From: Eledone cirrhosa
Lineage: Eukaryota
DNA: 64,000 nucleotides
Direction: 5' to 3'
Assembly (NCBI GenBank): GCA_964016885.1
Contig: OZ024744.1
Coordinates: 59,768,001 to 59,832,000 of the forward strand
Shown here: one piece after another, positions 575 to 44,558 of the stretch
Numbering within the stretch: the stretch's first letter is position 1
How the letters are laid out: every line of letters starts with the position of its first letter
Notes under the pieces: model-generated
Databases searched by the model: none
Seen by the model: only the letters and a program-made list of their open reading frames with translations
What the model was told of the DNA's origin: nothing
Translations under genes and position numbers: made by a program

Positions 575-1996
575 TTTGGGACGAGGTAACGAGCAGAGTA
601 GTCAGTCTCACCCAAAAATGGGCTGGGAGGAAGCTATCACTGAAAGGTCGCGCGGAGGTGGCGAATGCGTACATCGCGTCCGTCATCTACTACCGCCTAA
701 CCGTCGTGCCTTGCCCCCGTCCGCGCCTCGTCAAGTTGGAACGGCTCCTCTTCAAATTCTTGTGGAGGAGACAAGTTCCGTTGGTGAGGCGGTCCATCTG
801 CTGCCAGCACCCTCTACGCGGAGGGCTGGGCATGCCGTGGCTAATGATGCGCAGACATGCGTTGAGGCTGCGACATCTCCAGATATTCTGCCTCAACGGT
901 GAACAGGTGTGGTCGCCGTTTATCAGACGGGCCTTTCCGCAGCTCATTTCTTTGACTGAGCTGCAGTCCTGGGTCAAGAAGAGACCGAGACTGGGTGACT
1001 GGCACCTGGAATGTTGCCAGGCACTCACTGCCCTCTACCAAGCGGGCAATGCGATCAGTGGAACTTCCACTCTCGAGTTCTATGGAGGAATAGTGGTGGG
1101 CAAGTGCGATGACGCACTCGGAGAAGCTTTGGGCCTCGACGAAGTCGAACTGACCAGTCTGTACCGGAGGACTTTTGAGCCGGGGACGATGGACAATTTC
1201 CAGAAATTCCTCGCTTGGCAGTGTTACCGGGGGGGGGGGGGGGGGGGGGGCACTGCCGGTTCGGTATAAACTCTACAGGCACGGAAGTGCTGTCAGACGG
1301 ACCTGCCCAAGATGCGCACAGAACGACGAAACCGTTCTGCACGCACTTGTCCAATGTCCGTGCATTACTGACTTGTGGAGTTATGTCGAACAGCTACTGT
1401 CGCGTGTGGAACGAATCCGGCTATCGGCCGAGTCCATAGTGAAGATCGATCCACCACCTTCCTTAGGTCAGGAAGAGCAGGACATTTTCCTCTGTCTGGT
1501 GGCAGTTGCGAAAGAGATTATATGGTGGACCAGGTTGAAAGGACTAAAGACAGACACTTTTCTCTTCGGCCAATCCCTCATCAACTTCTCCAAATTTCAC
1601 CTGTAAAGGAGGGTGAGGGTGGAGAGAGAAGTGCTGCCCCCCAGTACATTTGCTAAAAGGTGGGTGAATGTGGCGAGAATGGCTCGTGTGAATGGGCCTA
1701 CTCTGACCATGCGCCTATAGGATGGCTAACTTGAGGAGAGGGGTGCTCTCCTGGGTGCCCTAGAAGCGCAGGGTGGTTCAGGATTGGTGGGGTACCCGAA
1801 TCACCCCAGGGTCGTCCACCCCCTATCGGGGAATTTATTTTGTTATATTTATGCATAGTTTATTTTATATTTTTATATTTTCATTGTTAAATTAGTCTTG
1901 CCATTGTGCACTTTTACTCGACCTTATTGTAAACCCCCACTGTCTCTGTCTTTGTATTGTCCCCTACATGTCGGCCCTTGTGGCTAATAAATGAAA

Positions 1997-1998
<2 letters not shown>
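575..1998 (+). mobile_element. Tx1/L1-clade LINE, 5'-truncated (ORF2 post-RT region, zinc finger, 3'UTR)
   Basis: ORFs 559-1269 and 1175-1606 contain W..RKLSLKGR, GGLGMP and CPRC...ETVLHALVQC. It is homologous to 20.7-21.8 kb, ends in AATAAATGAAATC and has (TTA)n on both sides. A G-run at ~1228-1250 shifts the frame. Confidence 0.9.
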
Positions 1999-2088
<90 letters not shown>

Positions 2089-2095
2089 GTTATTA
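1999..2095. repeat. (ATT)n microsatellite shared by the tail-to-tail Tx1 (+) and R4/Dong (-) 3' ends
   Basis: Direct reading. Confidence 0.95.
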
Positions 2096-5000
2096 CTCTT
2101 TGAGTCTCAGTCATTGATGTTAGTTAACTGGAAAGTTTGTTGAAATGAATATCAAGCCACTACCTGCAGCCTCAGATATTCAGGACGTATTGGAGGGTTC
2201 TTGCTGTTCCCAGCAAGCATGCCTTTTGAAGCGTTCCAAAAAGCGTGAAGGGGCCAATTTTCTTTAACCATCCCTGGAAACTTTTTGAGATAGTCCCTAA
2301 TGCGCCTATGACAATCGGGATCACTTTGACTTTATGGCAGTTCCAAATCCTTTTTACCTCCCAGTGTAAGTCCTGGTATCAGTTAATTGTCTCCCCCTCC
2401 TTCTCTTGCACTCTCGTGTCGAATGGGCAGGCCACATCCACAATCAGGCACGATTTTTTTTCTTTGTCCAAAACCACCAGGTCAGGTCTATTGTGTTCCA
2501 GTTTCTTGTCCGTCTGTATCCTAAAATCCCACAGCACCTTCACCTAATCGTTTTCTATCACCGCCTCTGGCTTATGCTCATACCACTTCTCAGAATGTGG
2601 TAAATTGTTTACTTTGCATAGGTGCCAGTGGATCACCCTGCCCATCACATCATGTCTCCAGCCTTTATAGTGAGTCTGGGCTAGGTGTTTACACTCGGAT
2701 ACAATGTGAGCCACAGTCTCCTCTCTCCACAGATCCTGCACAGTGGGCTAGCCGCCTCCTTGTAAATGTGGTATTTCAGCCACTTCGTTTTGAGGGCCTG
2801 CTCCTGCGCAGCCATTAACATTCCCTCTGTAGCCTTTTTAAGGTCTCCTCTTTTCAACCAGTTCCATGTCTGTGGATCTCTAAATTCAGTTTTCTCAAAG
2901 AAGGTACTATGAAGGGATTTTTACTGAAGGCTGCTCTATCTCCTTGATGTTATTTCCTCCTTGGACATCCCCTGGCCTATTGTCCCCTCCTTCAGTACAG
3001 TTCTGAGCATTGGCTCCTTACTATCAGTCACGTATTTGTGTAGGTTGTTCTTCTCCATCTGAACACAGTCCTCTATGCTGATAAGACCTCTTCCACCTTC
3101 AGATCTCCCTAAGTAGAGTCTATCGACATCACTCCTCTTGTGGAACATGTTGTAGATAGTCAATAGCTTCCTAGTCTTCCTATTCATTTCTTTTTGTTCA
3201 GCAACATTCCATCTCAGAATTCCCGCACTGTACCTAATAATAGACACAGCTCGGGAATTTACTGCAGTTATGTAATTCCTACTGTTCAGATGTGACTTTA
3301 ATACGCTCCTTACTCTCCGAAGGTATTCAGTTCTTATCAATTCCTTCATTTCTTTGTTCTTGATGTCATCAGCCTCCAGAACGCCCAAATACTTGTATCC
3401 TTCCTCAGAGTCAATTTCCTTTATCATCTCACCTGTTGGTATCTGGATTCCGTTGCTTCTGCTCAACCTACCCCTCCTCATCACAATGACTCCACACTTA
3501 CTAATACCAAATTGCATACATATATCATTGCTGAAAATACGGACAGTGTCAACAAGCACATCCAACTCCTTCTCACTCTTCCCGAAGAGCTTAAGATCGT
3601 CCATGAAGAGGAGGTGATTGATGGTAAACTCTCCCTTTCCCAACTTGTATCCTGCTCTCACTTTTCGCAGTATAATGGTCAGGGGGATCAGGGCAAGGAC
3701 AAACAGCAGAGGGGACAGTCTATCTCCCTGGAAGATACCTCTCTTGATCCTCCGCCTCCCAAAGATTCTCCACTCGATTATTAACTCTGTTTTCCAGTAC
3801 TTCATACTCTTGCTCAACAACTGTCTGATGTTATCTGCCACCTTGAAGATCTCCAGGCTTTTGGTTATCCAAGAATGAGGTTCCATGTCGAATGCCTTTT
3901 TGTCGTCTATCCATCCCATGGCAAGACCAGTGTGTCTCCTCCTGCAATTCTTCATTACCATCTTATCAATAAGTAACTGGTCCTTTGTACCACGGGACTT
4001 CTTTCGGCATCCTTTCTGTTCGTCCGGTAACAAGTTGTTTGTGTGGAGGTGATGGTAGATTTCCTCAGACACAATGCTTGTTAACAGTTTCCACATTACG
4101 GACAGACATGCGATAGGTCTATAGTTGGTAACATCATTACTCTTGCTTCGGTCTTTCATGACCAGAACTGTAGTACCTTTTGTCAACCACTCTGGTACCT
4201 CACTTGACATCAAGCAGTCATTGAACATGGTTGTCAGTTTCGGGTGGAGGGATGTTATATTTTTAATCAAATACCCTGCACACCATCTGGGCCTGGTGAT
4301 TCCCAGTTGGTTGTTTCCTCTCGATTTTATGCAAAGTAATTTCCTCACCGCATTTGCGTTTGCTTTGAGGATATTGTTGCACTGGTCAAGGTTCCTCGCC
4401 TCAAGGTATGGGATGACTTTGTTTACCTTAGCTGTTGTCTCTTTTAACTTTTTCCTGTCTACAAATCTTAGGTTCATAGGTTTCCCACTATCATTGTTCA
4501 TTTCATCTACCACTTAGTTTAGGATATCAACCAAATCTTGTCCTAGCCCGTCAGCATTCATCTCCTCAGTGGCCGTATCTTTGTTCCAGGTATTATTTAT
4601 TTCAGCATTCAGATCATTGTCTGCTTCGAATGCTTCCTCCGTTCTCTCAACCTCTTCACCTTCATCTCCCACTGGCTAGTTTGCCTGGCATACTCCACTC
4701 TCCATTTCCAATCTAATCTCTCTGCTGAGTTCCCCCAGTTCCAGCTCGCTTATCCACCCATTAGTTCTTATTACCCGAGCCTGCCCGGCCAATTTTTGTT
4801 CATCTAATTTAAATAGACCAATCTCGTTCCAGATGATATGCATCCGTTTCCTATAGCCTTTCTCCTTGGGGTTACTCTTCAGGTAACATTGCATAACAGT
4901 TCTATTCAATTCTTTCGTCTAGTTGGTTCTGGGCCCTTTCCTTCTTCTTCTTCCTCCGACACCAGCAGTATTTGGTTGACAGCCAGGTCCCTGCTGTTGA

Positions 5001-5357
5001 GCCAGGGAGCACCTGTTTGGTGAGAGTCTGTCACATGACATTCTTGTCCCCATTTCACCGTTATTCGAACTGTTTAGGTTCGACATTTAAACACTCTTAT
5101 CGAGGATTGGCGAATGTATGGTTACATAACCACCAGTGAATTACTTGTCTCCGGTGGTTTCGTCACTCCACGTGACTTTTGTGTGGCATTATCACGCTGT
5201 AGACGAACCCAAATAAACAAACAAACAAACAGGCAGAAAAAACCCCCAAAATGAATAAGCATAAATTTCATTGTAATGTAGTGTTTGAATGTCTGACTTA
5301 GTTTTCCCTTCCCTTCTCTGTCCGTCCGTTTGTTTTTCTCTTCATTTTTTAATTTTT
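2096..5357 (-). mobile_element. R4/Dong-type RLE non-LTR retrotransposon (TAA family), near full-length, internally deleted and degenerate
   Basis: N-terminal CY..SNP...GYRKRM..IW, RT (RGIFQGD, LLFMDD), CCHC (ETVAHIVSEC) and RLE (RPDLVV...DVACP, IPIVIGALG). (AAT)n follows the 3' end and (TTA)n lies at ~5358-5378. The 5' boundary is approximate. Confidence 0.88.
2936..4513 (-). pseudogene. Reverse transcriptase part of the R4/Dong ORF (disrupted)
   Basis: The 525-aa frame has NYRPIACL, EQKGC, KAFD, IFQGD and FMDD. There is a deletion/frameshift near 4290 and a premature stop at 2936. Confidence 0.88.
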
Positions 5358-5378
5358 TATTATTATTATTATTATTAT

Positions 5379-6596
5379 TGAATGCTATAGTTGACGGAGG
5401 CTCGGCTCTGTAAGGTATTGTAAATTTTGAACGCTATAACAATTGTAAATTGTTTAAAACTTTAACCAACTAGTAGACAAAAACACCCTCCTCCTCGTGA
5501 GAGGGGTCTTTCTGCCCGTTATTTGGCCCTTCGGGGTTAAATAACTGCTTATTGGGCTTTTGTGCTCAATATTTATTTTAAACAAAAAAAACAACATGGC
5601 TACGAAAAAGAATTTTCATAGGTCACTCCCACTCATTCCGTCTTCTTCTTCCTCAATCGTCACTACAGCAGAGAGAGGATTGTCTCTCTCCATCCCTTCT
5701 TTAAATGTGTCTCTCTCCCTCCCTTCTCTTTCGCAAGCGACGACAGAAAAGAAAAGTCTCGTGCAAAGCGTGCAAGATTTCTCCACGACGACAACGACGA
5801 AACAGGTGTGCGGGAAATACGAAAACCCATTTCATTCGTCTGACCTCAGGAATAATAGCAGTAGCAGCCGTAATAACAACAGCAACAGTGACAATGAAAA
5901 CAACAGTAGCAGCCGCAACAGCATCAGCAGCAGCATAAACAACAACAGCATTAGCAGCAGCAGCAACAACAACAACAACCACAGCAACAGCGGCAGTAGT
6001 CGTAGTACTTGCAGCAACAACAAAAGTAACAGCAGCTCTGACGACAACAACAACAACAACACCAGCAAAGAAGAACCCATCTCGTTTGCAGATATCGCGA
6101 AGAACCTGGAAACAATCCTCATAACAAATGAGGAATTAGAGGAAGCGAAGAAGATGGTGACAAAAACCGGACACCGAGCAATCTGCAAGGCAGCGGAAAA
6201 ATTTTTCGAAACCCAACAGCACTGTACGGTCACGTACCGTACAGTAAGTACAAAATCCCGTAGGGTTGAAAGAACCACAGAGGCTCAAATACAAAAAGCC
6301 TTGGGGTCTGTGTGGCAGCGGAAAACGCACATCACCCGAGGCAAGAAATATGCCACCGTAGACGTACTTTTTGCTACACCCCAGGAGGCGAAGGCTCAAT
6401 CCGTAGTGACCCTAAGGAGCGAGGAAATGGTGTTGGTGCCCTCCTACTGCGGGCAAAAAATTGTGAGGGTCAAACTGACCCACGTCTCCCCCGGGATGGC
6501 CCCTTCTTGGCTGACCGCGTCTGTCCTCGTCGGAATCAAGGACAAAACAACTGTACTGCAAGTACAGAAAAAAGTAAGAGAAGATTGGGTCGCCAC
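5379..6596 (+). mobile_element. Tx1-like LINE 5' portion (5'UTR plus ORF1 N-terminal half, ATG ~5596), 3' part lost
   Basis: Near-identical to the 5' end of the 20431-26533 copy (MATKKNFHRSLP...). It begins immediately after (TTA)n and breaks after EDWV into a Dong fragment. Confidence 0.88.
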
Positions 6597-16755: not shown

Positions 16756-18430
16756 ATAAATATATTACGATGTTTCATATTTATAATATAATAAATATAT
16801 TAGGATGTTTCATATTTATAATATAATAAATATATTAGGATGTTTCATATTTATAATATAATAAATATATTAGGATGTTTCATATTTATAATATAATAAA
16901 TATATTAGGATGTTTCATATTTATAATATAATAAATATATTAGGATGTTTCATATTTATAATATAATAAATATATTAGGATGTTTCATATTTATAATATA
17001 ATAAATATATTACGATGTTTCATATTTATAATATAATAAATATATTACGATGTTTCATATTTATAATATAATAAATATATTAGGATGTTTCATATTTATA
17101 ATATAATAAATATATTAGGATGTTTCATATTTATAATATAATAAATATATTACGATGTTTCATATTTATAATATAATAAATATATTACGATGTTTCATAT
17201 TTATAATATAATAAATATATTAGGATGTTTCATATTTATAATATAATAAATATATTACGATGTTTCATATTTATAATATAATAAATATATTAGGATGTTT
17301 CATATTTATAATATAATAAATATATTAGGATGTTTCATATTTATAATATAATAAATATATTAGGATGTTTCATATTTATAATATAATAAATATATTACGA
17401 TGTTTCATATTTATAATATAATAAATATATTACGATGTTTCATATTTATAATATAATAAATATATTAGGATGTTTCATATTTATAATATAATAAATATAT
17501 TAGGATGTTTCATATTTATAATATAATAAATATATTAGGATGTTTCATATTTATAATATAATAAATATATTACGATGTTTCATATTTATAATATAATAAA
17601 TATATTAGGATGTTTCATATTTATAATATAATAAATATATTAGGATGTTTCATATTTATAATATAATAAATATATTACGATGTTTCATATTTATAATATA
17701 ATAAATATATTACGATGTTTCATATTTATAATATAATAAATATATTACGATGTTTCATATTTATAATATAATAAATATATTACGATGTTTCATATTTATA
17801 ATATAATAAATATATTACGATGTTTCATATTTATAATATAATAAATATATTACGATGTTTCATATTTATAATATAATAAATATATTAGGATGTTTCATAT
17901 TTATAATATAATAAATATATTACGATGTTTCATATTTATAATATAATAAATATATTACGATGTTTCATATTTATAATATAATAAATATATTACGATGTTT
18001 CATATTTATAATATAATAAATATATTAGGATGTTTCATATTTATAATATAATAAATATATTACGATGTTTCATATTTATAATATAATAAATATATTACGA
18101 TGTTTCATATTTATAATATAATAAATATATTACGATGTTTCATATTTATAATATAATAAATATATTAGGATGTTTCATATTTATAATATAATAAATATAT
18201 TACGATGTTTCATATTTATAATATAATAAATATATTACGATGTTTCATATTTATAATATAATAAATATATTACGATGTTTCATATTTATAATATAATAAA
18301 TATATTACGATGTTTCATATTTATAATATAATAAATATATTACGATGTTTCATATTTATAATATAATAAATATATTACGATGTTTCATATTTATAATATA
18401 ATAAATATATTAGGATGTTTCATATTTATA
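16756..18430. repeat. 35-bp minisatellite, ~48 copies
   Basis: Unit TATATTA[C/G]GATGTTTCATATTTATAATATAATAAA. Only one position varies. Confidence 0.95.
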
Positions 18431-19559
18431 AACATCTGTCAATTACAAGTAACACTTGAAATATTGATCCAGATGCAGTATCCGTGGACTACGCATTAGT
18501 TAGGCACACATGTTTTCTATGTATGTACTTGGTAGGGATTTCTTTTTCCTGGATTGCATTGAGGTATCCTTCAAGGTGGGATGTTAGGGACTTGTCAGGA
18601 CTCCTGGCGAAACTTTTAGTATGGTTTATCCCCTCAATGTAGCTGTTTAGATAATACGCACGCCTTCAGTTTCGTCTCAAGTACCCCTGTACAACCTTCT
18701 CAGACATGACATCCTTAATTTAATTTTGGTTACATATACGGCTCTTTAATTGTTGAGCTTACTCAGTTGAAAGGACTTGGCTGCTATTTCTAGCTGTCGA
18801 TAATCCTATTCACGCCACTGGGATGACGTTGGTACGATGTGAGTATTTTTAAAGAAAATGCAACACGTGCTTCAAGTCATTCACAGATTTGCATTTGGTG
18901 TGTAAACTCAGACAGTTAAATCTTCTCCTTTGCTGAAGATACGGATTTGACTATTGTGATTTACCGATTTAATGAAATATATACAAAGGATTTATTGAAA
19001 TATATATGTGAAGTTCTTGTTAAATTTTAATTAGTTACCTATGTAACTATATGTGTTTACACTCTTTACAAATTATCCCCTGTGATTGTTTGATGTGTTT
19101 ATTTTATATATATATATGTCAATCGATTTTTAATTGAATGCTTATATATATAAAAGATCGGAGGCCATATTCAGTTGATTCAGGTTTATTTAAAACTCCG
19201 TTATACATATTTCACTGAAGACTATCAATTATGATAGCCTGAGCTCTTAAGACGGCAAATCTAAAATAAACACAGAATGTTCCTAAGAAACCTTTAAATT
19301 TGGAAAAAATCTAAGAATTTCACCGAAAAAAGGTTTTCTTTTCAAGATACTGGGGCCCCGCCGGCTCTTGTATGACACCAAGAGTTTTGGTGGAAGTGCT
19401 GGTCTGTTTAGGAAGTAACAAAAACGGTTGGTAGTCCTTCTACCTCCCCTCCCTATCATTATCTGTTGTAGTAGTAGTCTCAACAGCTGCTATAACAGTA
19501 GTGGCAACCAACGCCCTCCCATCTCCATATTTTCCACAGGTCTGCAATAACTGAATATT

Positions 19560-20680: not shown

Positions 20681-23600
20681 TTACAGATACGTACTCAGAG
20701 TAGGCCCATTCACTCGGGCCATTCTTGCTTCTCTCACCCATCTTTCAACAAAATGCTGGGAAGAGAGCACCTCCCTCTCTACCCTGATTTTCCTTTTCAA
20801 ATGAAATTTGAAAAAGTCAATCAGGGCATCACCGAAGAGGTAAGTGCTTGTCTTCAGCCCTTTCAAACGTGTCCACCATACTATCTCTTTCGCCATGGCC
20901 ACCAGACATAAAAACTTCCTGCCCTTCCCGGCTAAAGGAAGAGGGCGGGGCAATCCTCACGATGGACTCAGATGATAGCCGGATCCGTCCTACACGCGAC
21001 AGCAGGTGTTCGACATAAACCCACAAGTCAGCAATTTTCGGACACTGGACGAGTGCGTGCAGGACGGTTTCGTCGCCCTGCGCGCATCTCGGACATGCCC
21101 GGTGACGGTACCTCCATGCCTGTAGAGTTTATCCCGAACTGGCAAGGCTCCTCGGTAGCACTGCCAGGCCAGAGATTTCTGGAAGTTGTCCATAGGCCCT
21201 GGCCCGAAAGTTCTTCCGAAGAGATTGGCTAGTTGATTTTCGTCGACGCCTAGAGTTTCCCCAAGTACGTCATCGCTCTTCCCCTCCACTAATCCTCTAT
21301 AGAACGCCGAGGTGGAGTTTCCACCGATCACATTGCCCGATTGGTCGAGGACTGTGAGCGCCTGAAGACATTCCAGTCGCCAGGCGCCCCCTCTCAGTCT
21401 TCGCTTGACCCAGGACTGCAGCTCCGTCAAGGAAACGAGCTGGGGAAATACGTGTCTAGCAAACGGTGACCACACCTGATCACCGTCGAGGAAAAGGTGG
21501 AGATGTCCTAGCCCGAGCGCGTGTCTGCGCATCATCAGCCACGGCATTCCCAGCCCTCCACGTAGCGGGTGTTGACAGCAGATGGACCGCCTGACCATCG
21601 GAGCGCGGCCTGACCATCGGAGCGCGTCCCTTCCACAAAAAGCGAAAGAGCAAACGCTCCAGCGCATCAGGCGGGGCTTAGGACAAGGTACGATGGTCAG
21701 GCGGTAGCAGATGACAGACGCGATGTACGCGTTAGCCACCTCCGTTCGACCTTTCAGGGATAGCTTTCTCTCCGCCCATTTCTGAGTGAGAGAAGCCACC
21801 CTGCTCGTCACCTCGTCCCAGTTTTTGTCCGTCTGGAGGTCCGGACCGAACCAGACCCCTAGCAATTTAACCGGTCCGTCCATCCAGCGTCCGACGACGC
21901 TGTTGGACGGCATGGACCTGCCTCTCCAGGAGCCGAGCTGCAGGCCCACTGACTTTTCCTGGTTGATCATTGTTCCTGTCACCGCTTCGTATTCTCTTAG
22001 TGTAGTGCCGATCGCCTCGATGTGTTTGGTGTTCGACACCACTACGGTGACATTGTCCGCATATGGTGACACGGATCTTCCGCATCCTAGTTCGCGCGGG
22101 ACGCCCCACAACGTCTCCAGTTTGTGCAGTAATGGCTCGAGAGTCAATACGTACAAGAGGCACGAGAGAGGACATCCTTGGCGGACCGAGCGCATGATGT
22201 TGAACGGTTCCGAAAGGTGACTGTTCACTCTCACCACAGAGCAGATGTCGCTGTGCATGTCAGCGATCCAGCCTCTGAAGACGGGCCCAAAGCCAGCCGC
22301 CCTCAGGACTGCTGCTAGGTAACGATGGTCGACCCTATCGAAAGCTTTCGACTGATCTAAATTGATCAAGGACCCACCCGTACCAGGTTCCCTAGCTACC
22401 CTCTCTACGATGTATCGCATGAAGTGGAGGTTGTCGTGGATGGATCTGTCAGGAATGGCGCATGTCTGCGCCTCTCCTACCAGACCACCAACGACAAGCG
22501 CCAACCTCTTTGCTAGCACCTTGGTCAAAATCTTGAACTCTGTGTTTAGCAGAGTTATGGGCCTGAAATTATCTATGTTATCCCCCTTGTTCGGATCCTT
22601 TCTCAGCAGTGCCACCGCTCCTCGGCTCACAGAGCTGGGAATTCTCCCGTTCTGTTGCCAGTTGTAGTAGACGTCCGCCAAGAGACCTCCGAACAAGTCT
22701 GGCATTTGTACGTAAAGTTCATAGGGCAGACCATCCAAACCAGGCGATTTACCCCTTGTGCAGCCAGTCATTGCCTCCCGTACTTCAGCGGCTGTTATCG
22801 GCTTTTCGCAACACTCCGCCTCAGTGGCCGAGAGCCGCGGCAGTCCGTCGAGGTAGACACTAAAGTCCATCCCTCGACGCGGCCCACCGCTGCCCGCGAA
22901 CAGCTGAGCGAAGTGTCGCTGAAAAGCTTCACACATTTGCCCGGGATCGAGTACCATACGCCCGTCGTGGTCCACCAAAGACCGGATCGGGGCTTTGTTG
23001 CCACGACGCGCCTCCGCCACTCGGGCCCATTGAACGGCTTTCGTCCCCTCGTGTATGAGAGCACGCACCCTAGCTCTGACAATGCAGCCTTCGTGCTTTG
23101 CATTGAAGAATTGGTCAAGGGCCAATTTCGCCGCAAGCACGTCAGTCGCGATGCCTTTGCTAAGCGCCTCGTCTAATTTTCTAACTAGTTCTCCCTCATC
23201 TATTTTTCTCTATTGCTAAAGCCTTACTAAACCTAATCTATTCTATTCTAATCGCTCTTTTCAGAGCAAACCACCACTTGTTGTTGACGATGGCCCCCGT
23301 CAACGCCCGCTTAACTAGTTCGCTAATCCGGTCTCTGTAGGCCTTGCGCGCTGGTAAGGACGCGTTTAGCTTCCAATAGCCGGATGCTCGTCTATGAAGC
23401 CTATCTGAGTCAAGCACACAGATCACGAATTTGTGGTCCGTGTAGCTGACTATCTTGAATTGTGGACAGCCTATGCTAGACCTATCTATTTCCCTACAAA
23501 ATACTCTATCTAGATATGATCTGGATGACCCTATGCGATTTGTCCAAGTCCACATTGGCACATTCGGGAAATCCAATCGGTACCTGTCAGACAGTTCAAA

Positions 23601-24185
23601 ACGCCTGAGCAGGTTGGTGAGGCTCTTGCACCCTCCACCCCTATCCGCTAATCCCACACAGTCACAGCGTGCATCTAAGATCCTGTTCCAGTCGCCCACT
23701 AACACTAAAGAGCCGGACGTTCCAAGAAAGGTCTCCAGACGCCGGAAGAAATCAGGCCGCCCTGCTCCTGTCGGGGCATAGACGGCCATTAGCCTGAAAG
23801 ATTTCCCGTCTCCGCTGGTCACGTCCAGCACCACCAACTTACCCTCTGGGTCCAGGAAGATGGTCCGTATGGCGAGATCCAAACCTCTTCGAAAAAGCAC
23901 AGCAACTCCTCCCCCCGATCCAGGACGGCTGGGAGATGCGTACACATCGTAGCCGCCAAAGATCGGTGCGAAGGCCCGTGCTTCGGAGATTCTGGTCTCG
24001 CTGATGGCCACTACAACTATGTTTAATGACCTGAGTCGTTGAGCAGGTGACCCTGCTTCCATGACGACCCTGAGCCACGCGCATTTATGCTGCCTATTCT
24101 GAGTGAGGTCATGTTTAAAATAGAGTGGAAAAGATAGGAAAGACCACTTACCGTACTTTTCGTAGTGGAAGGATGGTTTCTCCAT
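20681..24185 (-). pseudogene. Tx1 ORF2 (AP endonuclease plus reverse transcriptase), frameshifted
   Basis: EN motifs ISET, VYAP, VGDWN, SYLDRVF, YTDH and GYWKLN. RT motifs KSPGLDG, FRPITLLN, KAFDRV, SVRQGCPLS and YADN (YADD mutated). Split over several frames. Confidence 0.9.
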
Positions 24186-26319
24186 CCCTTTTCACTTGAT
24201 CGTCTGGTGAAGGGACCGTTGAATTGTCCCTTCGGCTGGTCGTCGGCTCTTCTATGAGTATGTCCGAATATACTCTCCGGTTGAGAGTCCCTCCTAGGTC
24301 TCTGAAATCACCAACTGCGTTGGGGAATTTCGTTTTAATGTTTGTGTATTGTTTCTGTACTATTTTTAGCAGTCTTATGTTCGTTGGCGTTTTGATTGGT
24401 GCTGGTATTATGTAGTCGTGCTGTGAAATGTCTGTGTGTTCAATTATGTAAGTCATTAGTTTCTTGTTGTGTGTATTTATTGCCGTGCATTTGTTTTTCT
24501 GGGGGTGGTGTGTGGTTCTGCTATTTTCTTGTCGTTGTTGCTGGGTGTGTGTGTTTTGTTGTTGTGTTTGCGATGTTGGTGCTTGTGGTGGTGGTGTTGA
24601 AGGTGTTGTTGGTGTTGGTGATGGGGTTGTTGCCGGTGGTGATGGTGGTGCTAGTGTGGGTGGTGATGGTGTTGGTGGTGTTGCTGCTGTGAGTCTCTTT
24701 GCAGTAGCCTTTACCCTTTTTTCATTTCTTTCCTCCCTTTTCGAAGGCGACGATGAGCTGCTTCTGCGTTTATGCCTTCTTACGACCTTTTGCCATCCCT
24801 CTCCCACCTCACACTCCATGTCTGATTCTGTGAGGTCGGGGAGGGGTACCAGCTCCACTCTTTTACTTGTTGTTGTTGGTGATGTTTGCACTGGAGTCTT
24901 TGTTGCAGCTGCATTTGGTATTACTGTTGTTGTTAATACTTCCACTGCTGCTGTTCGTGATTTCCGTGGCGTGGGTATGGGTGCCACGGACCTATCGTTC
25001 CTGGTTGCCGCTTGTCCTGTTGCTGGTAGCCGTGGAGCCGGTTTCGGAAGGAGGGGGGTTTTCTCCTTTCTCAGGGTCTTCTCGTTGCAGAAGGCCCTGA
25101 GGTGAGTCTTCGATCCACAGCAAAAGCATTTCGGGCGTTTGCCCTCAACACTTATGGGCAGTTGAGTGCCGTTATCGAAGTCTATCACATCCGGTATAGC
25201 TTCGATGCACTCCTGGTTGGTTTGGATTAACATCTCAATGGAGGTGCCGACCCAATCTTCTCTTACTTTTTTCTGTACTTGCAGTACAGTTGTTTTGTCC
25301 TCGATTCCGACGAGGACAGTCGCGGCCAGCCAAGAAGGGGCCATCTCGGGGGGACGGGGGGGGGGGGGGGGGGGGGGGGGGCGTGGGTCAGTTTGATCCT
25401 CACAATTTTTTCCCCGCAGTAGGAGGGCACCAACACAATTTCCTCGCTCCTTAGGGTCACTAAGGATTGAGCCTTTGCCTCCTGGGGTGTAGCAAAAAGC
25501 ACGTCTACGGTGGCATATTTCTTGCCTCGGGTGATATGCGTTTTCCGCTGCCACACAGACCCTAAGGCTTTTTTGTATTTGAGCCTCTGTGGCTCTTTCA
25601 ACCCTACGGGATTTTTTGCTTACTGTACGGTACGTGACCGTACAGTGCTGTTGGGTTTCGAAAAATTTTTCAGCTGCCTTGCAGATTGCACGGTGTACGG
25701 TTTTCGTCACCATCTTCTTCGCTTCCTCTAATTCCTCATTTGTTATGAGGATGGTTTCCAGGTTCTTTGCGATACCTGCAAACGAGATTGGTTTTTCTTT
25801 GCTGCTGTTGTTGTTATTGTTGTTGTTGTCGTCAGAGCTGCTGTTACTTTTGTTGTTGCTGCAGGTACTACGACTACTGCCGCCGCCGCTGTTGCTGTGG
25901 TTGTTGTTGTTGTTGCTGCTGCTGCTGTTGTTGTTGTTGCTGTTGCTGCTAATGCTGTTGTTGTTTATGCTGCTGCTGATGCTGTTGCGGCTGCTACTGT
26001 TGTTTTCCTTGTCACTGTTGCTGCTGCTGCTGTTATTACGGCTGCTATTGCTATTATTCATGACGTCAGATGAATGAAATGGGTTTTCGTATTTCCCGCA
26101 CACCTTTTTCGTCGTTGTCGTCGTCGTCGTGGAGAAATGTTGCACGCTTTCTACGTGATTTTTCTTTACTGGCGTCGCTTGCGAAAGAGAAGGGAGGGAG
26201 AGAGACACATTTAGAGAAGGGAGGGAGAGAGACAATCTTCTCTCTGCTGTTGTGACGATTGAGGAAGAAGAAGACGGAATGAGTGGGAGTGACCTATGAA
26301 AATTCTTTTTCGTAGCCAT
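24148..26319 (-). pseudogene. Tx1 ORF1 (nucleic-acid binding, zinc knuckle), with compensating frameshifts
   Basis: MATKKNF start and CFCCGSKTHLRAFC knuckle. The true frame for ~25380-25570 is in ORF 25263-25601 (RGKKYATVDVLF), by comparison with the 5596 copy. Confidence 0.8.
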
Positions 26320-26534
26320 GTTTTTTTTTTGTTTAAAATAAATATTGGGCACAAAACCCCAATAGGCGGTTATTTAACCCCGAAGAGCCAAATAACGGGC
26401 AGAAAGACCCCTCTCACGAGGAGGAGGGTGTTTTTGTCTACAATTTGGTTAAAGTTTTAAACAATTTACAATTGTTATAGCGGTCAAAATTTACAATACT
26501 TTACAGAGCCGAGCCTCCGTCAACCATATCATTC

Positions 26535-26572
<38 letters not shown>

Positions 26573-33505: not shown

Positions 33506-34285
33506 ATTCTGCTGCTGCTATTGTTGAGTCTCTCTGTAAGTTTGTTTGTTTTCTGTAGTTGCAGGAGGTGGTCGACCTCCGCGTGCCTAATGTGGGGTTC
33601 CCGTTGGGAGGTCCCTAGGTCTGTTTGGGTTACTGGGTCCACCCTTCTTTCCCCCCACATGGTTCTGCCGGGTGCCTATATTGCCAGCTTCCGTTTGTGT
33701 GTGGTTTTTAAGTCTACCCCTATTGGTGCTAGCTATGTGCTGGGCCACATTTCGCGTGGTAGAATGAGAGCTTTACAGTGTGTCTGTTGAAGATCTTGCG
33801 GTATCTATGGTCCTTCGGGAAGCATTTATCTATATTTTTTAATATTTTATTTCTTCATTTTACTTTATCTTATTTCATTATCTGTTTGGCACCCCCACCA
33901 CGTGAAAGGGTGGTAGGATTGATGCCAACCCACACACACTCATTCTTCTAAAGACAGCAGCAGTAGAAGTAAGGCTGACCTGCCAGCTTACCCCCTAACA
34001 CCAATAAACACAAGAGAGGAGGTCAGCTGTACTTAACAAAAACAACCACAACAGATTGTCTTGTTTCAGAAAAAAATTTATATAGACTTTTGACTGAGGA
34101 ATGTTCTCACAACTGACCAATGGGAGGAGAGAGTGTCCTATGATGCCGAAATTCGATTGTTCGAATTCATATGATTCCAGTTCTTCAGAGAAATAACAAC
34201 CCAACCAGGAGCTGGACATATCGGAGTATTGACGGAGTAAAACACTTTAACAACATGTGTACCTGTCTCTACCACACCAATTCGG

Positions 34286-34340
34286 ACTGCCTGATGAGGT
34301 CACAGCCAATGATGGCTGTCACCGAAATATATATAGCAGT
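34286..34340 (+). ncRNA. Minimal type I hammerhead ribozyme
   Basis: ACUGC-CUGAUGA-GGU(C)ACAGCC-AAUGAU-GGCUGU(C)ACC-GAAA-UAUAUA-UA-GCAGU. Intact core, palindromic stem III, and AATAAA just downstream. Confidence 0.85.
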
Positions 34341-34508
34341 ATATCTTTAATAAACGAAGCCAAATTTTAAATATTTGACTTAATTACTTTATTTTACATT
34401 ACTCCGGAGTAAACAAACCAACCTTCGTACTTCGTCGAGTGCTCCAATCTGCATACTGAGGTGTCGGTAAACAACCAACATATACTCAGAATATATATAT
34501 ATATATAT

Positions 34509-36343
34509 GAAGACAAACATAGAATATTCGAAAATATTCTGTATGTTTATAATAAACATTTCGAAGACCCAATCGCTATAGAATAGAATACGTCACGTAT
34601 TACAATTTGAGATTCTCGATAAAAGCAAGGGAAGTAACCTACGCGTTTCATTCTTATTAGAAATCATCAGGATTACATATCCAGTGCTTTTATCGAGAAT
34701 GACACAGCTAGAGACTTATAGAATACTTAGCTGTGTACAGGAACTGGTTTGAAAGAGCGGTTGCCGGTCCGGCAGAAATTAGAATTTGGATATAATGCTC
34801 TGAAATAGCGAAATATATGTGAAGACAAACATAGAATATTCGAAAATATTCTGTATGTTTATAATAAACATTTCGAAGACCCAATCGCTATAGAATAGAA
34901 TACGTCACGTATTACAATTTGAGATTCTCGATAAAAGCAAGGGAAGTAACCTACGCGTTTCATTCTTATTAGAAATCATCAGGATTACATATCCAGTGCT
35001 TTTATCGAGAATGACACAGCTAGAGACTTATAGAATACTTAGCTGTGTACAGGAACTGGTTTGAAAGAGCGGTTGCCGGTCCGGCAGAAATTAGAATTTG
35101 GATATAATGCTCTGAAATAGCGATATATATGTGAAGACAAACATAGAATATTCGAAAATATTCTGTATGTTTATAATAAACATTTCGAAGACCCAATCGC
35201 TATAGAATAGAATACGTCACGTATTACAATTTGAGATTCTCGATAAAAGCAAGGGAAGTAACCTACGCGTTTCATTCTTATTAGAAATCATCAGGATTAC
35301 ATATCCAGTGCTTTTATCGAGAATGACACAGCTAGAGACTTATAGAATACTTAGCTGTGTACAGGAACTGGTTTGAAAGAGCGGTTGCCGGTCCGGCAGA
35401 AATAAGAATTTGGATATAATGCTCTGAAATAGCGAAATATATGTGAAGACAAACATAGAATATTCGAAAATATTCTGTATGTTTATAATAAACATTTCGA
35501 AGACCCAATCGCTATAGAATAGAATACGTCACGTATTACAATTTGAGATTCTCGATAAAAGCAAGGGAAGTAACCTACGCGTTTCATTCTTATTAGAAAT
35601 CATCAGGATTACATATCCAGTGCTTTTATCGAGAATGACACAGCTAGAGACTTATAGAATACTTAGCTGTGTACAGGAACTGGTTTGAAAGAGCGGTTGC
35701 CGGTCCGGCAGAAATTAGAATTTGGATATAATGCTCTGAAATAGCGATATATATGTGAAGACAAACATAGAATATTCGAAAATATTCTGTATGTTTATAA
35801 TAAACATTTCGAAGACCCAATCGCTATAGAATAGAATACGTCACGTATTACAATTTGAGATTCTCGATAAAAGCAAGGGAAGTAACCTACGCGTTTCATT
35901 CTTATTAGAAATCATCAGGATTACATATCCAGTGCTTTTATCGAGAATGACACAGCTAGAGACTTATAGAATACTTAGCTGTGTACAGGAACTGGTTTGA
36001 AAGAGCGGTTGCCGGTCCGGCAGAAATTAGAATTTGGATATAATGCTCTGAAATAGCGATATATATGTGAAGACAAACATAGAATATTCGAAAATATTCT
36101 GTATGTTTATAATAAACATTTCGAAGACCCAATCGCTATAGAATAGAATACGTCACGTATTACAATTTGAGATTCTCGATAAAAGCAAGGGAAGTAACCT
36201 ACGCGTTTCATTCTTATTAGAAATCATCAGGATTACATATCCAGTGCTTTTATCGAGAATGACACAGCTAGAGACATACAGAATATTTTCGAATATTCTA
36301 TGTTTGTCTTCACATATATATCGCTATTTCAGAGCATTATATC

Positions 36344-36348
<5 letters not shown>
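34509..36348 (-). mobile_element. 312-bp tandem array (~5.7 units) with one hammerhead per unit and an inverted terminal segment; retrozyme-like
   Basis: Units start at 34509, 34821, 35133, 35445, 35757 and 36069. 36274-36348 is the reverse complement of 36032-36106. (TA)n lies on both flanks. Confidence 0.85.
34634..34676 (-). ncRNA. Type I hammerhead ribozyme, first of six copies (also at 34946, 35258, 35570, 35882, 36194)
   Basis: GUAAUC-CUGAUGA-U-UUCU-AAUA-AGAA-U-GAAA-CGCG-UA-GGUUAC. Stem I is extended by a 16-bp helix (34612-34627 with 34685-34700). Confidence 0.8.
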
Positions 36349-36405
<57 letters not shown>

Positions 36406-36408
<3 letters not shown>

Positions 36409-41827: not shown

Positions 41828-41932
41828 TTACACCTATAACTGTGTGTATGTAAACGTGTATACGTATGTGTGCGTGTGCTTATATATATATATATATTTA
41901 AAAGAATAGAGGTGTAACACACGAGTTGTGAT

Positions 41933-42515
41933 ATATTAGTAAAAGGAAAAGAAAATGCTGACAAATTGTTCCCAGTGAAAATTAGTTTAATTAGGAATAA
42001 GTAAAAATTAGTAATAAGTATTGGTTAGTATTCAGTTTTAGTTTTAAGTTTTACCGGTTGCGCATTTCTAATGCTTTTCAATAATAATTTTGAGATAGAG
42101 CGCCCGTGATGTTTGCTCTAATCTGATTAGTTTTGGAAATTCTACCTGTTTTATGTGAAAAAAGTGGCTCCAGAGGTATTAAGATTTGGTTGGTTGTTGA
42201 ATGTCACGTGAATAAGTACTATAGTTTCGCGCCAATTCGTGTTGCAAAAATTCTTGTAGTCAAAACAATTTTGATTGGTTGGTAGAGGTCACGTGATTGT
42301 TAAAAATTGATTTTGCGCCAAATGTAGGTTTGCTGAAGAGTGTCCTTTTTCGCCTGATTGAGAAGTCACTGAAAAATAAGTCTTTTAAGACAAATATGTG
42401 TGTGTGTGTGTGTGTGTAGTAAAGAGGTTCATTGTTGTGATAATGGTCAGTAGGGATGTGTGTGTGAATTGCAGTCATGTTGAAAGGTCAACAGTTCAGG
42501 TGTCTATTAAGACAA

Positions 42516-42569
<54 letters not shown>

Positions 42570-44558
42570 CAGAGTTATTCGTGGTAGAGGGATTCGGTCA
42601 GTAGGAATGTGTCTGTACGTGTGTGGGGGATATTTTAACATGTCTTATACGGAGAACTGTGTGTGTGTATATGTCTGTTTGTATGTTAGTGTACGCGTGT
42701 GTATGTGTGTGTGTATATGTGTGTATGTGTGTGTGGGAGGACCAGTTTTTTGTGATACTGGTAAAAATGGTGTATATTATTCGATATTTTCAGTAATTTG
42801 CAAAAACGATTCTCTCAAAAGAACATCAAAAACATTAATAATAAAAGGGGTGAAATGATATATAGTATTGTCATAACACCAAGATGTGTGTGAGTGTCCA
42901 GATTCTACGTACTGCAAGGGGAATCCATTCCATTAGGCCCTGCCGTATGGGAATACTTGTGTACAAATATGTATGTGCCCATCACTGTGCAATGCATATG
43001 TGCGTCTATGTATGTGTGTGTGTCGGCACGTTTATAACTATAGACATCAAAACGTATGCAAATTTGTGAATATTTGTGTTACACCATAGAACATGTGTGT
43101 TTACGTATGTCATTGTGTTTATATGTGGATAGAGATGTATGTAGGATGTATGCTGATGTAGGTATGTATGTTGACGTGTGTATGTTGTGGTTTCATCTTA
43201 GGAAGAAGTGTTTAGACGGGGGTCCGCATTTGTTAATAAAGTGAGATTCCTTGCTGATGCGCTGGGTGTGGGTGGCATTATCTTTAAATTTGTAGAGGGG
43301 AAAGATTCTAAAGTTGGGATGATTTTGGACGGCACAGGTATCAATGTGTTCACTCAGTGGTATTTTCCTGTATTCCCGTATTTTAATTTGGGATCTATGG
43401 ACAGTCATGCGTTGGCGGAGGCTGTTTTTGGTCTGGCCTATGTATTGTTCTCGACAATCTGAGCAAGTTAATACATATATTAGGTTTTCTGATGCGCATG
43501 TGAAATTGTGTTTTACTATAAAACGTTGTCCTTCTTTGAAATAGAATTCCGAACCCTCTATTAGGTTGATGCATATGCCACAGTTGGGTCTATCGTATTT
43601 TTTTACTGTGGGTTTCGTTGTTGTGGTTGGCAGTACTTTGGCATGTGTTAGGATGTTTTTCATTGACTTAGATTGTCTTCTGCTCTTTATGATATCGTGT
43701 GTTCGAAGGATTTGGTTCATTCTATGGTCCTTTTTTAACACAGGGATGTTCTGAAGGATGGTGTCAAAGGTCTCATTGTTGAGGGGGTTCTGTGTGGAGA
43801 TGTATGGAATAGCTTTTAGTTTCGGTTGATTTACTCCTGGGTACTGAGTTTTAGGGCACGTTGGATTCCATTGTCAATTAGTGATGCAGGGTAGTCCCTG
43901 CCTATGAGTGTGTCCTTTAGTTCTTGTAGCCGTAAGTAACAGGTGTTTTTATTGGAGACTATAGTACAGATTCTCTTGGCTAAGCTGTAGAGAATATTAA
44001 TTTTAACGTGTCTAGGGTGGCAAGAGTTGAAAGGAAGATATTGCTTGGAGTCTGTGGGCTTATCCCTACTAACCATTATCACAACAATGAACACACATAT
44101 TTGTCTTAAAAGACTTATTTTTCAGTGACTTCTCAATCAGGCGAAAAAAGACACTCTTCCACAAACCTTCATTTGGCGCATAATCAATTTTTAACATGAC
44201 CTCTACCGACCAATCAAAATTGTTTTGACTACAAGAATTTTTGCAACACGAATTGGCGCGAAACTTATAGTACTCATTCACGTGACATTCAACAACCAAC
44301 CAAATCTTAATACCTCTGGAGCCACTTTTTTCACATAAAACAGGTAGAATTTCCAAAACTGATCAGATTAGAGCAAACATCACGGGCGCTCTATCTCAAA
44401 ATTATTTTTGAAAAGCATTAGAAATGCGCAACAGGTAAAAACTTAAAACTAAAACTGAATACTAACCAATACTTATTACTAATTTATACTTATTCCTAAT
44501 TAAACTATTTTTCACTGGGAACAATTTGTCAGCATTTTCTTTTTTATTTACTAATATA
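41933..44558 (-). mobile_element. 5'-truncated Penelope-like element with inverted pseudo-LTR
   Basis: 41933-42458 is an inverted copy of 44063-44558. The interior encodes an RT thumb (KPTDSKQYLPFNSCHPRH) and a GIY-YIG domain. TA-rich flanks. Confidence 0.88.
43193..43741 (-). pseudogene. Penelope GIY-YIG endonuclease domain
   Basis: NCGIC linker, then FTCASENLIYVLTCSDCREQYIGQT...LRQRM..H and a downstream E. Confidence 0.88.

Follow-up and report, generated by a model that had tools for sequence, protein, structure and literature searches.

The window analyzed here, a 64,000-nucleotide stretch of the Eledone cirrhosa genome, carries a tandem array of a short repeat set between two TA tracts, a piece of one Penelope-type family (PLE2) and a broken coding element of another (PLE1). 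The features are as follows (the dot marks features without strand).

33825-34490, plus: 3' part (pLTR) of PLE2, the second Penelope-type family, with its own hammerhead motif at 34286-34340; it hosts the TA tract
34491-34508, dot: left (TA)n target flank, (TA)9, trailing the 3' end of the older PLE2 Penelope-type pLTR
34509-36275, minus: long arm, 5.7 units of a 312-bp monomer, hammerhead sense on minus
34634-34676, 34946-34988, 35258-35300, 35570-35612 and 35882-35924, minus: further hammerhead copies, cleavage predicted
36194-36236, minus: type I hammerhead motif with 6-bp stem I, U-U at the base of stem II, palindromic ACGCGU stem III and GUA site
36274-36275, dot: head-to-head junction, 2-nt microhomology AC
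36274-36348, plus: short arm, 75 nt of monomer, sense on plus
36312-36346, plus: 35-nt tail, running from the S site to the L site, at the short-arm end only
36347-36406, dot: right target flank, (TA)30; pure TA would hide any target duplication
41898-44061, minus: PLE1 sense arm, with 5'-truncated RT end, GIY-YIG frame at 43193-43873, 3' region, and tail at 41898-41936
44062-44553, plus: PLE1 inverted arm, no tail, (TA)n next

Elsewhere in the window, we observed a 35-bp AT-rich minisatellite (16756-18431, 48 copies, 98% alike) and diverged inverted repeats of several kb, lying about 20 kb apart (891-6492 and 20911-26560), that are likely two copies of one retroelement.

The array starts at 34509, its 5.7 units are 99% alike, and it displays one periodic variant, found in units 1 and 3. 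The 312-bp register is lost at 36276, the AC at 36274-36275 being common to both arms. According to the first-pass annotation, what follows repeats 36032-36106 exactly in reverse complement, shares AC (2 nt) with the array and runs into (TA)n. This holds to the base, with 75/75 bases matching, no extension on either side and (TA)30 behind. The match to 36032-36106 is exact but not unique: the same 75 bases fit 35096-35170 and 35720-35794 just as well, so that the source unit of the short arm cannot be named. The stretch had further been read as an inversion at a truncated 5' end. The inversion is real, but it is no cap; it is a second arm, which has a fixed 3' end of its own, and either arm can be the longer one. 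Indeed, the outer 3' end of the long arm lies at what we call the short (S) site, directly before the unit-internal ATATATAT, while the outer 3' end of the short arm lies at the long (L) site, its final 2 nt being common to the TA run. In both the array and the coding Penelope, the first-pass annotation had missed a one-sided tail, of 35 nt in the repeat and 36-39 in PLE1. Hence, 36274-36348 is the L arm of a standard two-armed insertion and not a one-off cap. Its 75 nt make it short for an arm, since only 13 of 113 insertions have an arm below 100 nt.

Based on the motif and on stem I pairing, a type I hammerhead motif is present on the minus strand in 6/6 units of the window array; Rfam returned 0 matches at gathering score. 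The monomer folds better than 100/100 shuffles (z -4.5); the hammerhead motif alone folds no better than shuffles (z -0.1). With 312 bp repeated 5.7 times and 109 of 312 bases being G or C, the unit falls within the range used for retrozymes (150-450 bp, GC below 50%). The sole frame of at least 90 aa in the array, a 100-aa stop-to-stop frame, crosses the junction and the TA run, as fits a non-coding repeat, and target duplications, where visible, are about 9-12 nt long (retrozymes, more than 4 bp when present). Across sister arrays, fixed variants avoid the conserved hammerhead core except at the free N7 position. Like the metazoan retrozymes described in PMC7229834, the repeat is made of tandem non-coding units of about 310 bp with low GC and one type I hammerhead each, and like the reported axolotl hammerhead motifs it has a weak palindromic stem III and a U-U at stem II. 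Judged by these sequence features, it is likely a non-LTR retrozyme with a 312-bp hammerhead-motif unit, whose self-cleavage is predicted. A pattern search found 14,355 hammerhead cores genome-wide. Compared with the window unit, a 310/311-bp subfamily (L082, L153-L242) carries a paired stem I change, U-G to U-A and A-U to G-U, with pairing kept.

Then, we looked at the layout of other arrays in a set of 60 loci, made of the 40 best-scoring loci (the window's included) and 20 of 21 further loci taken in order of position on contig C1. Phases were counted from the predicted cleavage site, which places S at about 130 and L at about 165. First, 46/60 loci were two-armed (30/40 best-scoring and 16/20 position-ordered), in agreement with the inversions that the first-pass annotation had expected at other arrays. 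Second, the minus arm preceded the plus arm in 46/46 two-armed loci, which means that both RNA 3' ends always face outward. Third, 43 of these 46 had one S and one L end, the two sites being 35 nt apart, none was SS or LL, and three had an odd end. The diagnostic mark of the insertions is therefore the 35-nt tail on one side only. Two of the loci, L102 and L103, are one insertion event that was duplicated and in which the number of units was altered after insertion.

The same pairing was found in wider samples. Over the initial 114 Mb of C1, we counted 63 ends of L type and 67 of S type, which gave 46 outward pairs within 16 kb, all 46 of them S+L (some of these loci overlap the 60-locus set). 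Sixty further loci chosen by their L end gave 45 S+L pairs and 2 pairs with an odd end; 9 pairs were cut by the fetched edge, 5 loci had no pair, and one locus held two insertions. The tailed (L) arm exceeded the other in length in 55 of 113 insertions and fell short of it in 57, and both arms exceeded one unit in 83/113. A genome-wide pattern search that included the sister subfamilies counted 896 ends of L type and 808 of S type on the forward strand (reverse-strand counts were inflated by repeats), which leads to an estimate of about 1,700 insertions. L082, which lies outside the 60, was dropped, as was L102 from the junction, haplotype and length tests and L105 from the length tests; L054, L082 and L102 were left out of the GUG-site survey discussed below, and L192, which holds two insertions, was left out of the young-set variant count.

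The TA flanks and the missing poly(A) anticipated by the same annotation were also found, with TA next to 96/104 S or L ends of the 60-locus set and a run of at least 10 A at 0/262 ends. About 100 of 115 complete insertions lie in pure TA, which is uninformative on target duplications. Where the target was interrupted, duplications of about 9-12 nt were visible in 5/115 (L035, L037, L054, L156 and L161; L209 is ambiguous), as expected from staggered nicks, and at 4 loci the target was interrupted on one side only. At the head-to-head junctions, 19/34 without inserted bases had an overlap of at least 2 nt (chance 0.18), and 11/45 had inserted bases. The 5' phases of paired arms were unrelated (KS p 0.96, n=45), on which ground we rejected the reading of the two arms as one broken concatemer. 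Also, the 5' ends were not piled at the cleavage site, neither in the 60-locus set (3/90) nor in the young set (9/170). Phases in the young set were non-uniform (Rayleigh p 0.0006), leaning to the part of the unit that precedes the start sites, a bias that short arms would produce, and not to the cleavage site.

As to the coding Penelope, the first-pass annotation had placed it at 41933-44558 and assigned it the same geometry. The minus sense, the inverted arm (44062-44553) and the TA flank were confirmed, but its left end lies at 41898. The element matches a GIY-YIG domain and is broken. The left end of PLE1 exceeds its right end by the 36-39 bases of the tail, which was present in 20/20 copies fetched by the left end. 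Among these tail-picked copies, 10/20 had an inverted tail-less arm and 0/20 an inverted tailed arm, and 5/10 loci with an intact frame were two-armed, all S+L. The short end of PLE1 is at an internal ATATAT, like that of the repeat. Its intact 784-aa relatives combine RT and GIY-YIG in young and numerous frames and carry the CX4CX2C linker given for Neptune and Nematis in PMC8557442. In L143 (5799-7163; also L146 and L149), which hold young intact PLE1 copies, we observed a 455-aa stop-to-stop frame, without a Pfam match, that lies upstream of the 784-aa RT/GIY-YIG frame and overlaps it; this is a two-frame, frameshift or intron arrangement.

PLE2 has the same two-armed layout with an end offset of about 96. 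A family 3 element in L147 (6427-7360) is likewise two-armed, with an offset of about 129. The offsets thus differ by family, and the repeat's 35-nt tail is nearest in length to that of PLE1 among the three. We found no BLAST similarity between the monomer and the PLE1 loci (20 + 10), apart from separate array insertions, and saw no standard hammerhead in the PLE1 3' region. Family 3 shares 26/28 hammerhead bases with the retrozyme, and no linked ORF was found for it across 30 loci. In L032 (3692), seen also as L123 (192-4486), a retrozyme S arm stands head-to-head with a full young PLE2 (pLTR-ORF-pLTR) with a 1-nt overlap, and this PLE2 copy likewise ends at the PLE2 short site. Two different RNAs may have inserted together, or a deletion may have followed; at 1/60 loci, the joint was judged insufficient to name PLE2 as the partner. 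Penelope coding pieces were present somewhere in the flanks of 20/149 loci, the L032 joint being the sole direct one found. Among the three families compared, no autonomous partner was found. As further observations, Penelope-type elements were nested in one another's terminal TA tracts (window 33825-34508; L072, L083, L147, L151 and L152), and the flanks hold at least 5 further hammerhead families.

Insertions of EN+ Penelope-like elements are described in PMC3846280 and PMC8557442 as having a head-to-head inverted 5'-truncated copy, a tail of 30-40 bp at one end, target duplications of 8-10 bp and TA microsatellite targets. The repeat resembles them in its inverted truncated copy, 35-nt tail, short target duplications, TA target and two internal start sites, and differs in having no ORF and in arms that are multimers of a short unit. 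It also differs from the Penelope tail called optional in these accounts, its own tail being on exactly one arm in 46/46 pairs. Since the layout is the published Penelope signature, the idea put forward by the first-pass annotation, that the array was mobilized in trans by Penelope machinery, is well supported; from the insertion footprint, we infer that the enzyme is a Penelope RT/GIY-YIG protein. Together, these data make it highly probable that the 75 nt are the short arm of a head-to-head retrozyme insertion, likely made in trans by a Penelope-type RT/GIY-YIG protein nicking both (TA)n strands, with one cDNA per nick.

The best reading of the insertions is double target-primed reverse transcription with one start per strand, followed by annealing of the cDNA ends. 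In a (TA)n tract, each strand would be nicked by a Penelope-type RT/GIY-YIG enzyme, and from each of the two nicks a cDNA would be primed. One primer would start at L, a site set by the protein, and the other at S, where the TA primer could base-pair with AUAUAUAU of the RNA. The two cDNAs would stop at unrelated points, and their 3' ends would anneal, each serving as template for the second strand of the other. Because the antisense strand of each arm continues a target 3' end, we infer that each can be cDNA. In the experiments of PMC11167929, cutting and extension of both strands were obtained with a purified anole Penelope protein, and copying began at two neighbouring internal sites, between which the tail lies; in vitro, the two sites served both strands alike. 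Such equal use does not alone give strict S+L pairing, and this counts against our explanation, as do the 14/60 loci in which the second arm is missing under the two-arm rule.

With regard to the RNA template, variants were compared between arms and between insertions. Paired arms had 66 shared and 22 discordant variants, versus 16 shared and 127 discordant in shuffled pairs. The young 310/311-bp subfamily showed 28 haplotypes in 82 loci with at least 3 units (about 849 units), its arrays being uniform across both arms, yet differing between insertions. Variants in this young set were mostly of two kinds, those fixed throughout an array, which almost always included both arms, and those confined to a single unit (120). 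Intermediate cases were few: once L191 and two misaligned loci are set aside, there were 7 variants each found in 2 of 14-28 units and an indel found in 3/6. About 12 changes were private to one locus yet fixed throughout it. This fixed-or-single distribution points to a bottleneck of one unit, at each insertion or close to it. Combined with 5' ends that ignore the cleavage site, the bottleneck argues for a covalently continuous template, for which a circle fits best. On this sequence evidence, the template was probably a single monomeric RNA that was copied over and over, the simplest form being a circle produced by cleavage at the hammerhead and subsequent ligation, as proposed in PMC7229834 and PMC4209133. 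In L191 (4000-4300), we observed a haplotype switch in register, with the two 3'-terminal units of one type and the rest of another; this is either a template switch or ectopic recombination. A 342-nt contig of X5 that wraps the monomer was set aside, as a tandem array gives the same.

Several observations count against a pure monomer circle, and some of them would suit a doubtful alternative, in which the same enzyme and double priming act on a linear, uncleaved multimer from a source array. Single-unit variants are common to both arms at 4 loci (L039, L103, L168 and L182), some variants, in the window array as well, follow a period of 2 or 7, and the altered unit number of L102/L103 also speaks against a pure circle. 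The GUG survey found a GUG site, predicted to be uncleavable, in 3/3 units of L066 and 5/6 units of L042. Also, 5' ends that ignore the cleavage site fit a linear template too, and in the in vitro system of PMC11167929 cleavage was not needed for insertion, uncleaved RNA being the main substrate. Gene conversion or post-ligation editing could account for these variants, and so could linear multimers. However, the linear template would need at least 28 uniform source-array haplotypes with almost no half-spread variants, and it fits poorly with the locus-private changes fixed through their array. The fixed changes, in addition, lean toward A>G (9/27 sites versus 13/120 singletons, Fisher p 0.006, the polarity of three sites having been set by hand from the older subfamily), which is unlike DNA decay. 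They recur on different backgrounds at paired sites, a combination that suits RNA editing or structural selection. We hold the ADAR reading to a hint, since A>G and T>C, at 9 versus 6 by site, show no clear bias between strands, and selection on RNA structure yields a similar pattern.

It is improbable that a single cDNA folded back, primed itself and copied itself, the tail arising by endonuclease resolution. Self-priming is the reading given in PMC3846280 and endonuclease resolution that in PMC8557442. Some junctions do lie in palindromes or in the unit's 16-bp stem (L067, L155 and L161), and the variants shared by the arms of L168 and L182 are mirrored. Fold-back cannot, however, yield L minus S arm lengths from about -277 to +35, a zone in which we found 21/113 insertions (independent arms would give 13 +/- 3), both arms being below 640 nt in 9 of the 21. 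For these 21 it is largely refuted. Nor can it build L039 and L103, and the unrelated 5' phases of the two arms likewise speak against it.

Equally improbable is the scenario of 10.64898/2026.07.22.740005, as set out in that preprint, in which a Penelope terminal repeat, inserted once per site within an ordinary element, grew to an array by DNA-level amplification. Such growth is compatible with the changed unit number of L102/L103 and with internal duplications in the long arrays L165 and L168. Against it, no locus had the monomer running in sense into a Penelope frame, and both arms exceed one unit in most insertions, with one haplotype common to both. The family itself may have descended from a pLTR in the distant past.

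In L1 twin priming, both target strands prime, and inversions with microhomology result. When LINEs mobilize SINEs in this way, there is a single 3' end with poly(A) or a simple tail, and the first cDNA stops at the second primer. Twin priming of this type by an L1-, RTE- or CR1-like enzyme would explain an inversion with microhomology, and LINE-like RT frames are present in the window. But the repeat lacks poly(A), its second site is fixed and not variable, its two outward 3' ends copy overlapping template sequence, and the 5' ends of L arms do not gather at S (Rayleigh p 0.15, n=41), so that we consider this reading highly unlikely.

Palindromes are an assembly hazard, and no contig of runs X1, X2, X3 and X18 (fragmented, from other samples) bridges the window junction, but an assembly or long-read fold-back artefact, which would give perfect mirror copies, is very improbable given arms that differ in fixed ends, outer flanks and junction phases and given X1 and X2 contigs that join both fixed ends to TA and include a few joints matching strand switches (20-nt sides, weak).

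Retrozymes and their Penelope link have already been proposed in print, and the parts of the system are all of known kinds. Cervera and de la Pena (2020, PMC7229834) described metazoan non-LTR retrozymes, with Penelope proposed as mobilizer and circular RNA as template. Li, Clavereau and Pollet (2026, 10.64898/2026.07.22.740005) argued from co-occurrence and pLTR similarity that retrozymes are non-autonomous Penelope derivatives. In these sources, the case for the link is built from shared ribozymes, co-occurrence and pLTR similarity, with no account of two-armed insertions that have a one-sided tail; here, in contrast, it comes from just such insertions, and no pLTR similarity to a coding family was found. 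The repeat also recalls Chlamys MRC1, for which PMC8557442 reports non-coding head-to-tail multicopy insertions attributed to Penelope-type machinery. In that account, MRC1-type elements resemble the 3' end of their autonomous partner and are without a canonical hammerhead, whereas the repeat carries a hammerhead motif and no similarity to a partner was found for it. In open-licence PMC articles and the main texts of bioRxiv preprints, we found no description of this insertion footprint on retrozymes.

Both the enzyme that spreads animal retrozymes and the circular template have been proposed since 2020 on indirect grounds. Here, about 1,700 insertions by our estimate bear a footprint specific to Penelope, in which both start sites are located to single-base precision, and the finding makes partner and template testable. 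As young intact 784-aa Penelope frames lie in the same genome, the published in vitro assay is directly applicable. Moreover, the strict S+L pairing and the arm-length test constrain how Penelope elements form inverted ends. We tentatively suggest, as somewhat short of an even chance, that two Penelope RTs roll round one monomeric hammerhead circle from two fixed sites, one per strand, and thereby write RNA-level changes into every unit of both arms. If true, A-to-I edits, even a post-ligation edit of the cleavage site, would be recorded in all units of both arms, and the arrays would be direct genomic evidence of a viroid-like circle as a germline retrotransposition intermediate in an animal.
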